Origin: Dehalococcoidia bacterium
GTDB lineage: Bacteria; Chloroflexota; Dehalococcoidia; Lucifugimonadales; QGNO01
Direction of reading: 5' to 3'
Assembly: GCA_965197965.1 (NCBI GenBank)
Contig: OZ240235.1
Coordinates: forward strand, 1,317,820-1,381,819
Length of the DNA: 64,000 nt
Below are positions 32,061 through 33,807 of this stretch, one piece after another; position 1 is the first letter of the stretch; every line of letters starts with the position of its first letter. The notes under the pieces are model-generated. The model was not told where the DNA came from, made no database searches, and worked only from the letters and a program-made list of their open reading frames with translations. The position numbers were made by a program, and so were the translations under genes.

Positions 32061-33197
32061 TCAGAATAACCGGATTCTCTCGATGACGTTGGCACCTCCC
32101 AGTTCCTGCCATCGACGATTCCATGCCTCATCAGGAAGGGTTAACAAATTATAGAAGTGCTCGTGACGAATCCAGCGTTCTCGAACGTGGCTAGTGGCAC
32201 GTGAAAGGGTTGAATGCAATTCAGAAAGCCCTTCAGGCGGCTCGAGTACCTTAAGTACTTCGTCAAGGTCCCGCATCCTCGAGCAGACCGATTCTCCGGG
32301 TTGCAGCGTACCTGGGCCCATACCCGCTGGAATGCCCTCAAGCACGTCACATGCAGCAACCATCAAACTATAGAACCAAGCCGTTCGCCGAAACCTAGTA
32401 GAGCGCACAATAGATCCCATCTCATCCTGAATGGATCGCAAAGCATTCCTGAATACACGCTCTACTGCCTCGCGGTTCGGGAAGTCGTCGTCGTATTCTT
32501 TGTACAGTTTCGAGATCATGCTGATGTCAGAGATTCCCCTTACAATGGCAACCAGAACGTCAGAGGTCAGTTCTACTTCTTTCATTCGCGCTATCTGTCG
32601 GCTACTAAATGTCTTCATGGTTTCCCAAGCTTCTAGAGAGGATTCCTCAGCTGCCAACTTATAGGCTGTCTGCTTGAACCACCCAAACCACCTAGCGTTA
32701 AGCTTCTCCTGCCTGTTGAGAACCAAAGTGTATGTATTGAGCCTCTCAAACATAGCCCACACTTCTGGGTCGCTAGCTTCTTCCATAACTTCGGCAGAAA
32801 TCTCATAGTTGAGGAAAGCGGCCTGAACAGGTTCTGGCAGATCAATAAATGTGAGGCCGCCAAACTTACTGTGGTGCTTTAAATCTAGGCGCAGTTTCCC
32901 ATTGTAGAAATCAATTATAGCTTTGAGTCGTTGTTGACCATCAACTACCTCATATTGGAACTGAGCCGAACTCGCAACTACTCCTCTAAGATAAATCTTC
33001 GGCATGGGAAGACCACGTACGACCGTATCTATCAGATATGACCGAGCCACTTCTTCCCACGCTAAGCGGCGTTGGAATTTTGGCTGCAGAACCAAGTTGT
33101 CCCTAGCAGAAAGGCGCAATAGGTCAGCTATCTTATAAAGTTTCCGATAGAAAGTTGCCATTTTATTAGGCACCCCACGCCGTTCTGATATTGTCAT
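32061..33197 (-). CDS. DUF262 (ParB/Srx-like) protein without a DUF1524 nuclease domain
   Basis: 378 aa with PKFQRRLAW, LPMPKIY, VVDGQQRLKAI (DGQQR at 32928-32942) and FERLNTYTLVLNRQE. I see no HNH/His-Me motif in the C-terminal half. The start is either 33197 (GGAAG upstream, 32-nt overlap) or 33161 (4 nt after the upstream stop). Confidence 0.75.
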   Translation of the reverse strand: MTISERRGVPNKMATFYRKLYKIADLLRLSARDNLVLQPKFQRRLAWEEVARSYLIDTVVRGLPMPKIYLRGVVASSAQFQYEVVDGQQRLKAIIDFYNGKLRLDLKHHSKFGGLTFIDLPEPVQAAFLNYEISAEVMEEASDPEVWAMFERLNTYTLVLNRQEKLNARWFGWFKQTAYKLAAEESSLEAWETMKTFSSRQIARMKEVELTSDVLVAIVRGISDISMISKLYKEYDDDFPNREAVERVFRNALRSIQDEMGSIVRSTRFRRTAWFYSLMVAACDVLEGIPAGMGPGTLQPGESVCSRMRDLDEVLKVLEPPEGLSELHSTLSRATSHVRERWIRHEHFYNLLTLPDEAWNRRWQELGGANVIERIRLF

Positions 33198-33807
33198 AGA
33201 CTTCCATTGGGATGAAACGATCTGCCGATAAATTGGTCGTCTCGACTAGCTGTCTGATACGATCCGCATCCGCAATAGATTCTACCAATATATACTTGAC
33301 ATCGGCGTATTCAAACCTAAAGGACGTCGGCACACGCCATTCTCTTTCATGAATCCAATCTTGGATAACTCCTTCTTGCAGTACTGCGTCTGGATCGAAG
33401 GGTACGACGAACGCCTTGAGTGCTTGAGGAAGGTTACCGATCTCATTGCGCAATATGTCCCCACGAATATAAAGTGCGGGACCACCACCCGCTTGGAAAA
33501 TCGTCCCTTTCGAAAAAACTACTCCGTACGAACTGTATCTATTCCTATGCGCCAGGAGGGCATCCCACACGCATTCTGTGAAACATACTGCGGAGGCTTC
33601 TCCTAAGAAAGGCATGGGCGAAGCATGTATAGTTCTTGTTGTCAGAATACTAGCTAATTTTTCAATTGCACCCTGCTCCTTATACTGGTGAAGTGGGTGG
33701 TCAGCAGGGATATCATCTTGTCTAACCATTCTTCTTGCTCCATCTTTTGTGAAGTGAACCAATAGAGGCGAATAGTCCGGCGTCTTTCGGGTGTAATAAT
33801 TTGTCAT
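33166..33807 (-). CDS. AbiGi-like (abortive-infection family) protein
   Basis: I prefer the start at 33807 (MTNYY), 7 nt after the methyltransferase TGA. The track start at 33888 would overlap by 74 nt. LLVHFTK, VCFTECVW, YSSYGVVFSKG...GGPALYI and HEREWRVP resemble the AbiGi family pattern as I remember it. Confidence 0.45.
   Translation of the reverse strand: MTNYYTRKTPDYSPLLVHFTKDGARRMVRQDDIPADHPLHQYKEQGAIEKLASILTTRTIHASPMPFLGEASAVCFTECVWDALLAHRNRYSSYGVVFSKGTIFQAGGGPALYIRGDILRNEIGNLPQALKAFVVPFDPDAVLQEGVIQDWIHEREWRVPTSFRFEYADVKYILVESIADADRIRQLVETTNLSADRFIPMEVYDNIRTAWGA

Follow-up and report, generated by a model that had tools for sequence, protein, structure and literature searches.

A candidate restriction-modification-like cassette joins an AbiGi-family protein and a nuclease-less DUF262 protein to a DNA methyltransferase in a Dehalococcoidia bacterium

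Introduction

Several described defence systems resemble one part or another of a three-gene cassette that we analysed in a Dehalococcoidia bacterium, on a stretch of 64,000 nucleotides (nt) of contig OZ240235.1 (assembly GCA_965197965.1), here called the window. The cassette encodes a DNA methyltransferase, an AbiGi-family protein (PF10899) and a DUF262 protein. As in lactococcal AbiG, the gene of the AbiGi-family member comes first and is closely coupled to one for a protein of some 370-400 amino acids (aa). To our knowledge no mechanism has been assigned to AbiGi since AbiG was first described, and a 2026 review still finds it without a counterpart in structure or function (PMC13064643). 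In SspE, GmrSD and BrxU a DUF262 domain senses DNA and links this to the hydrolysis of nucleotides, and the DUF262 protein of the cassette shares with these proteins an N-terminal ParB-like nucleoside triphosphatase (NTPase) domain with DGQQR-type motifs. DarTG defends against phage by DNA modification, and DarT ADP-ribosylates thymidine in single-stranded DNA.

The locus differs from each of these systems. Unlike in AbiG, the partner is a DUF262 protein and not AbiGii (PF16873), a methyltransferase is an obligatory third part, and the AbiGi-like protein lies far from the core of its Pfam family, whose hidden Markov model (HMM) it matches in part. Unlike GmrSD, BrxU and SspE, the cassette has no DUF1524 His-Me nuclease, and its effector would be a separate protein with a predicted ADP-ribosyltransferase (ART) fold. 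Like SspE in SspABCD, the DUF262 protein goes together with a DNA-modification system by which the cell could label its own DNA, through methylation here as against phosphorothioation there, and the system shows no obvious dependence on modification of the type IV kind. The likeness to DarTG is that DarT provides the only fold matches in the PDB and that an ART survey groups AbiGi, DUF2971 and DarT (PMC12522546); unlike DarTG, the cassette shows no detectable profile similarity and no macrodomain antitoxin, the partners being a DUF262 NTPase and a methyltransferase. With type II systems such as BsaWI, NgoMIV and SmaI/Cfr9I it shares a related SPPY N6_N4 methyltransferase and a compact mobile form, with the pair at the place of the endonuclease, and unlike them it has, instead of a recognisable endonuclease, a putative sensor NTPase and an ART-like enzyme. 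Menshen (NsnABC), PD-T4-2 and the operons of HEPN, ParB and DNA methylase genes noted in a 2013 survey (PMC3710099) also combine a stand-alone DUF262 protein with separate partner genes, and NsnA is the best PADLOC match of ours. Unlike in Menshen and PD-T4-2, NsnB, NsnC and PD-T4-2_B found no match, the other two cassette genes matching only AbiGi and MTase models in PADLOC; unlike in the HEPN-ParB-methylase operons and Menshen, the partner is AbiGi-like and not a HEPN protein or an ATPase, and the proposed effector gene comes first, followed by DUF262.

The combination of methyltransferase, AbiGi-like and DUF262 genes was absent from three defence libraries, and we found no paper describing it. 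The cassette looks like an undescribed restriction-modification-like immune system, the weapon of which is probably an NAD-using enzyme and not a DNA cutter.

Results

The AbiGi-like protein and its DUF262 partner

An earlier note on this DNA, written from its letters, had taken the middle gene for an AbiGi-like open reading frame (ORF) of about 213 aa with four motifs, and our analysis bears this out. Translation from the ATG at 33807 yields 213 aa; the longest ORF, which begins at 33888 and has 240 aa, overlaps the gene upstream. The shorter form is correct because the start falls at the same MT.Y position in all 37 aligned homologues. The motifs VHFTK (residues 17-21), VCFTECVW (74-81), YSSYGVVF (91-98) and HEREWRVP (153-160) mark the best-conserved stretches of the family alignment, in which H18, C75, F76, E78, C79, W81, Y91, E154, R155, E156, W157 and R158 are invariant. 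The Pfam AbiGi model matched residues 73-123 only, with 26.9 bits (E 5.7e-6; curated cut-off 22.4) and with 27.5 bits in the genome-wide scan, and the PADLOC AbiGi model matched with 23.8 bits. Proteins that share 36-42% identity with it across 95-99% of its length (P0107, P0110-P0120) are assigned PF10899 in precomputed tables. Judged by the score above the Pfam cut-off and by this near-full-length identity, membership of the AbiGi family is sound but peripheral. The feature lies far beyond chance expectation, with 178 homologues at E<=1e-3; of these, some 105 reach >=45% identity. NCBIfam has no model matching the AbiGi-like or the DUF262 protein, and among phage records there was no relative, among plasmid records only distant ones.

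The start of the DUF262 gene was set by homologue alignment, as most homologues start at MATF: the longest ORF has 378 aa (32061-33197) and the likely product 366 aa from the ATG at 33161, 4 nt past the stop codon of the AbiGi-like gene. The protein matched PF03235 (GmrSD_N/DUF262) with 77.8 bits, and gave no match to PF16873 at E<=1 in Pfam and no AbiGii match in PADLOC, so that, as the note had stated, it is DUF262 and not AbiGii; its likely length is 366 rather than 378 aa. Its PADLOC matches were NsnA (112.7 bits), PD-T4-2_A (69 bits) and REase_II PDLC03418 (54 bits). Within the DGQQR motif D74, G75, Q77 and R78 are invariant and Q76 is conserved in at least 90% of sequences. In an AlphaFold2 (AF2) model with a predicted local distance difference test score (pLDDT) of 87.1, the N-terminal half matched ParB CTPases, BrxU and SspE in Foldseek, and the chain is all-helical beyond residue 130. 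The C-terminal half, scanned within the whole protein and by itself, gave no Pfam match, no DUF1524 nuclease and no nuclease fold match. It carries the nearly invariant residues S320, T323, S324, H325, R329, R332 and H333, that is T-S-H, then R, then R-H. We considered a HEPN-like R-x-H reading of the R..RH motif and dropped it, as the residues are spaced R-x3-H and the reading finds no support in any profile.

Conservation of the pair

Species genomes supplied 80 loci for a survey and metagenomes another 80. Identity to the query divided the AbiGi-like proteins into a close group of 51 loci (47-81%) and a distant group of about 110 loci (32-42%), with a gap between 47% and 42%. The earlier note had proposed looking at what lies downstream of AbiGi homologues. 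In the close group a DUF262 gene of the same family directly follows the AbiGi-like gene in all 44 loci with room for it, at a distance of -16 to +6 nt in most of these. In one database protein, P0080, the two are fused in frame. The pair of AbiGi-like and DUF262 genes is obligate and translationally coupled. P0217, a candidate for a second fusion, was rejected: its AbiGi-like part is decayed, lacks the E-x-E region and continues into DUF262. One locus (L124) has a second AbiGi-like copy of 236 aa at 6366-7076, about 640 nt downstream of DUF262, with R.XamI and its methylase upstream in the locus.

No DUF262 gene adjoins the AbiGi-like gene in the distant group, and two loci have one nearby in a non-adjacent position. 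The neighbours there are heterogeneous (recombinases, integrases, kinases, housekeeping genes) with no constant partner, and AbiGii was found neither downstream (0 of 42) nor upstream (0 of 53). PF16873 was not found in the genome of the window either, the control genomes being likewise silent. The earlier note had seen the locus as a partner swap on a conserved two-gene scaffold. The conserved, coupled pair is supported, and replacement of AbiGii is not: with no AbiGii among the distant-group neighbours, an AbiGi scaffold that has lost AbiGii is unsupported.

The DNA methyltransferase as third component

The view of the locus as two genes had also overlooked a third component. A beta-class methyltransferase gene lies upstream of the pair on the same strand, so that the three co-directional genes run in the order methyltransferase, AbiGi-like, DUF262, and its stop codon is 7 nt ahead of the AbiGi-like ATG. 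The longest methyltransferase ORF reaches a TTG at 34780. PADLOC MTase_II matched with 177.7 bits, and the SPPY motif is present in the translation.

A methyltransferase gene accompanies the pair in all 30 informative close-group loci, directly adjacent in 26 and with a XamI endonuclease gene intervening in four; among close-group loci with >=1.5 kb on both sides none lacks it. The flank is too short on at least one side to judge in the other 20 close-group loci. The distance between pair and methyltransferase is usually 3-250 nt, and some loci encode the methyltransferase on the opposite strand. In the distant clade 2 of 95 immediate neighbours are methyltransferases.

The methyltransferases beside the pair belong to at least seven lineages, including PF01555, DCD-fused PF01555, Eco57I-like/N6_Mtase and XamI-type enzymes. 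The type found in the window recurs in three Dehalococcoidia metagenome-assembled genomes (MAGs). The DCD-fused PF01555 form occurs in eight loci (L092:2750-3949 and seven similar ones) and has an N-terminal DCD domain (PF10539, 83.6 bits), a domain better known in plant development and cell-death proteins. Methyltransferases of 516-535 aa were present in 19 loci; they form at least four lineages with 23-32% identity between them, one of them XamI-associated and one Eco57I-like. A further locus (L081) has a 478-aa PF01555 methyltransferase. Recognisable endonucleases (PF09572 RE_XamI, E 9e-104) accompany the XamI-type methyltransferases only. In one short-flank locus (L105:36-3991) genes for a type I HsdR and a YgjP-like metallopeptidase lie upstream of the AbiGi-like gene, so that type I restriction-modification loci, too, can contain the pair.

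The endonuclease position

Relatives of the window methyltransferase were sought in 401 genomes from the phylum, and we scanned their neighbours. The closest relative, with 62% identity (L194), adjoins a helix-turn-helix protein with RE_BsaWI, four relatives at 35-40% identity adjoin NgoMIV-family endonucleases, and two at 34% adjoin SmaI-family endonucleases; none of these has AbiGi-like or DUF262 genes. Since the relatives have BsaWI/NgoMIV/SmaI-type endonucleases there, in the window the pair holds the endonuclease position of a type II system with a CCGG core. No endonuclease family matched within the island as a cognate restriction enzyme, the sole hint being the 54-bit REase_II match of the DUF262 domain.

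BsaWI recognises WCCGGW, a pattern that fits the ACCGGT within the palindrome CCACCGGTGG upstream of the methyltransferase. This palindrome occurs once in the window, and 13 of 100 shuffled sequences had at least one match; it could hint at the methylated site or at autoregulation. Scans for promoters and terminators found sites no more numerous than in shuffled sequence.

Other partners of DUF262 proteins

With a DUF262-family profile we searched the same phylum for full-length relatives of the DUF262 protein. Each of them has a small gene translationally coupled downstream. The partners are HEPN proteins of the RiboL-PSP/MAE_28990 type in four loci (L217, L222, L226, L229) and, with weaker matches, in two more (L206, L207), RelA/SpoT-domain proteins in two (L208, L209), and unknown proteins of 210-214 aa in two others (L210, L211), which have PF01555 methylases upstream. 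Several loci with HEPN or RelA/SpoT partners also carry methyltransferases; one operon (L208:506-3996), a further effector variant around DUF262, combines DUF262 and the RelA/SpoT-domain protein with a C5 DNA methylase and an HhH-GPD glycosylase-like gene. As its relatives have HEPN or RelA/SpoT proteins for partners, DUF262 stays constant and it is the effector that is swapped. Partner swapping thus exists, in the reverse of the direction first supposed.

The window has a second nuclease-less DUF262 gene at 7827-9038 on the minus strand (PF03235 87.6 bits), with 25% identity to the first in the N-terminal domain. Directly after it on the same strand is a 168-aa ORF (7328-7834) with a weak match to HEPN_RiboL-PSP (19.5 bits, below cut-off). 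This second pair (7328-9038) has metabolic neighbours and no adjacent methyltransferase. The 2.55-Mb genome has six DUF262 genes in total together with DarT, a heavy investment.

Predicted fold and motifs of the AbiGi-like protein

The AF2 model of the AbiGi-like protein (pLDDT 85.9; predicted template-modelling score 0.84) matched in the PDB only two DarT structures by Foldseek, 7omx and 7omv (E 2.6e-3 and 4e-3; probability 0.98 and 0.85). The next match had E 0.45, and all others were above 0.4. Foldseek of viral structures returned uncharacterised proteins only, and a search of all PDB sequences with the family profile HMM returned chance matches only. A tblastn search linked the protein to a plasmid gene annotated DUF2971 (E 2e-9). 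The ART survey counts AbiGi (PF10899) as a known ART-like family in the vicinity of DUF2971 and DarT and prints the ART signature as [R/H]x[D/T] - [S/Y]xx - [Q/E]x[Q/E/D], the CxS form of motif II being reported only for the AbiGi-like family Lsan_2474 (PMC12522546).

Three elements of the AbiGi-like protein, H18-F-T20, C75-F-T77 (or Y91-S-S) and E154-R-E156, are invariant or nearly so and lie on predicted strands. Guided by the survey (PMC12522546), we infer that H-x-T, C-x-T and E-x-E are the ART motifs; the fit is partial, as motifs I and III agree with the printed signature and the C-x-T of motif II falls outside it. Altogether the ART assignment of the AbiGi-like protein is moderately likely and not established. 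The same genome encodes a bona fide DarT elsewhere, outside the window (G000:C1:1750030-1750641; PF14487 213 bits).

Insertion and mobility of the cassette

The cassette occupies an island of low guanine-plus-cytosine (GC) content (0.46-0.49, against 0.58-0.62 in the flanks) between an nfeD-like gene and an SPFH/stomatin-like gene (Table 1). DNA homology to same-genus genomes runs through the left flank up to 31911-31946 and resumes at 34794-34815. We placed the insertion at about 31944-34797 because in four same-genus genomes the site is empty, with only some 15-115 nt between the nfeD-like and SPFH genes. The three genes, and nothing beyond them, are 76-78% identical in DNA to three other Dehalococcoidia MAGs, whose flanks are unrelated. 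From these comparisons the cassette can be identified as a recent insertion and as mobile. Other same-genus genomes carry different inserts at the nfeD-SPFH gap, of about 760 nt in two (L237:686-1452, L240:1324-2082) and of more than 1.4 kb in two further ones (L238:2398-3849, L239:1-1452), and the gap seems to be a hotspot of repeated insertion. Of about 185,000 species genomes four, besides the present one, contained the close clade, as did one of the 401 sampled genomes of the phylum: the cassette is rare, and in these collections it is mostly on metagenome contigs.

Table 1. Features of the cassette and its flanks (positions are those of the window)
Feature	Position	Strand	Remarks
nfeD-like gene, left flank of the insertion	30550..31938	plus	DNA 89-92% identical to same-genus genomes up to 31911-31946
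Inserted low-GC island, exactly three genes	31944..34797		about 2.85 kb; GC drop and empty site in relatives
Nuclease-less DUF262 protein (ParB/Srx-like NTPase), proposed sensor/hub	32061..33161	minus	366 aa; PF03235 77.8 bits
AbiGi-family protein, proposed effector	33166..33807	minus	213 aa; PF10899 26.9 bits; predicted ADP-ribosyltransferase-like fold
DNA methyltransferase, beta-class N6_N4, SPPY motif IV	33815..34708	minus	probably 297 aa, ATG 34708; PF01555 111 bits
Perfect palindrome CCACCGGTGG	34760..34769		upstream of the methyltransferase ATG; contains ACCGGT, fits WCCGGW
SPFH/stomatin-like gene, right flank	34864..35718	plus	protein 89-94% identical in nine same-genus genomes

Discussion

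We propose with middling confidence that the three genes form a restriction-modification-like immune cassette of a methyltransferase, an AbiGi-family ART-fold protein and a nuclease-less DUF262 NTPase, in which the effector would not be a nuclease. The methyltransferase would mark the cell's own DNA. The DUF262 NTPase, by analogy with SspE, GmrSD and BrxU, would bind DNA and read the state of the mark, and would then switch on or recruit the AbiGi-like enzyme. On the analogy of DarT, this enzyme would use NAD+ to transfer ADP-ribose to a nucleic acid or some other essential target, with no cutting of DNA, and phage replication would be blocked. A bolder version is restriction without cleavage, in which the DUF262 protein would scan for unmethylated sites and direct a DarT-like AbiGi enzyme to ADP-ribosylate the foreign DNA so that it could not be replicated; the cassette would then be one of a modular class made of a methyltransferase, a DUF262 protein and an interchangeable effector (ART, RelA/SpoT or HEPN). 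We regard this version as speculative and doubtful.

Several observations speak against the proposed immune cassette. The TM score of the AbiGi-like model to DarT is only 0.34-0.41, which makes the ART assignment weak. Comparison by hhalign (local, global and low-stringency) of the AbiGi-like family, also as a 141-sequence alignment, with 22 DarT (PF14487) sequences gave a probability of 0.5%, and as this profile-profile comparison found no significant match, the link to ARTs is drawn from the fold and the literature. A 2026 review reports no PDB matches for lactococcal AbiGi (PMC13064643), and in Pfam AbiGi bears the label of an antitoxin rather than a toxin. None of the three genes in the island has a macrodomain match, and no other reversal enzyme is present. 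The C-terminal domain of the DUF262 protein, with its conserved His/Arg motif, could be the real effector. Finally, seven or eight loci have a bona fide XamI-type endonuclease gene, either separating the pair from the methyltransferase or lying next to them, and there the pair is added to a complete restriction-modification system and does not replace the endonuclease.

This last observation leads to the main rival explanation, that the pair is an abortive-infection device housed in restriction-modification loci, kept silent by the methyltransferase or its complex and firing once a phage anti-restriction factor disables them. The PrrC anticodon nuclease within the EcoprrI locus is a model for firing of this kind. 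The co-occurring complete XamI-type systems agree with such a guard, as do the position of the pair downstream of a type I HsdR gene in L105, the derivation of AbiGi from an Abi system, and the many Abi-type toxins that the 2013 HEPN survey records embedded in restriction-modification operons (PMC3710099). However, most architectures, that of the window included, have a methyltransferase without an endonuclease and therefore no restriction activity to guard, and the relatives of the window methyltransferase carry their endonuclease exactly where the pair stands. We consider a guard function unlikely.

Alternatively, the helical C-terminal domain of the DUF262 protein, for example as a novel nuclease or RNase, might be the effector, and the AbiGi-like protein a non-catalytic adaptor, regulator or antitoxin. 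This would account for the seven nearly invariant C-terminal residues, for the antitoxin label of AbiGi in Pfam and for the missing sequence-profile link to DarT. Yet the AbiGi-like protein retains the invariant E-x-E and other residues typical of active ARTs, and the C-terminal half resembles no nuclease in fold or family. DUF262 relatives, moreover, always come with a separate enzymatic partner (HEPN, RelA/SpoT), which suggests that DUF262 is not the effector. Such a division of labour appears similarly unlikely to us.

The locus might also be an AbiG-type two-gene toxin-antitoxin or Abi system that has exchanged AbiGii for DUF262, the methyltransferase being a mere neighbour. PF10899 membership, the size of the DUF262 gene, similar to that of AbiGii, and the conservation of the pair are what this reading predicts. 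It is at odds with the failure to find AbiGii in the genome (the control genomes being silent as well) or among 95 neighbours of the nearest AbiGi-like genes without DUF262, with the methyltransferase adjacent in every informative locus, and with the varying small partners of DUF262 relatives, and we judge it very improbable. Least credible of all is a chance clustering in which an independent, for example type IV-like, system accumulates beside methyltransferases in defence islands: defence genes do cluster, and the methyltransferase is on the opposite strand in some loci, but the adjacency holds in 30 of 30 loci, usually within 3-250 nt and with methyltransferases of at least seven lineages, recurring defence genes of other kinds are few, and the island in the window consists of these three genes only.

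If the proposed immune cassette is read correctly, the AbiGi family gains a testable hypothesis, that of an NAD+-dependent effector, through the gene order that ties it to a ParB-like NTPase and a DNA methyltransferase. The logic of restriction-modification would be extended to an effector that is not a nuclease. Together with the HEPN- and RelA/SpoT-linked relatives, the cassette suggests that nuclease-less DUF262 proteins may be a general sensor hub for methylation-linked immunity.

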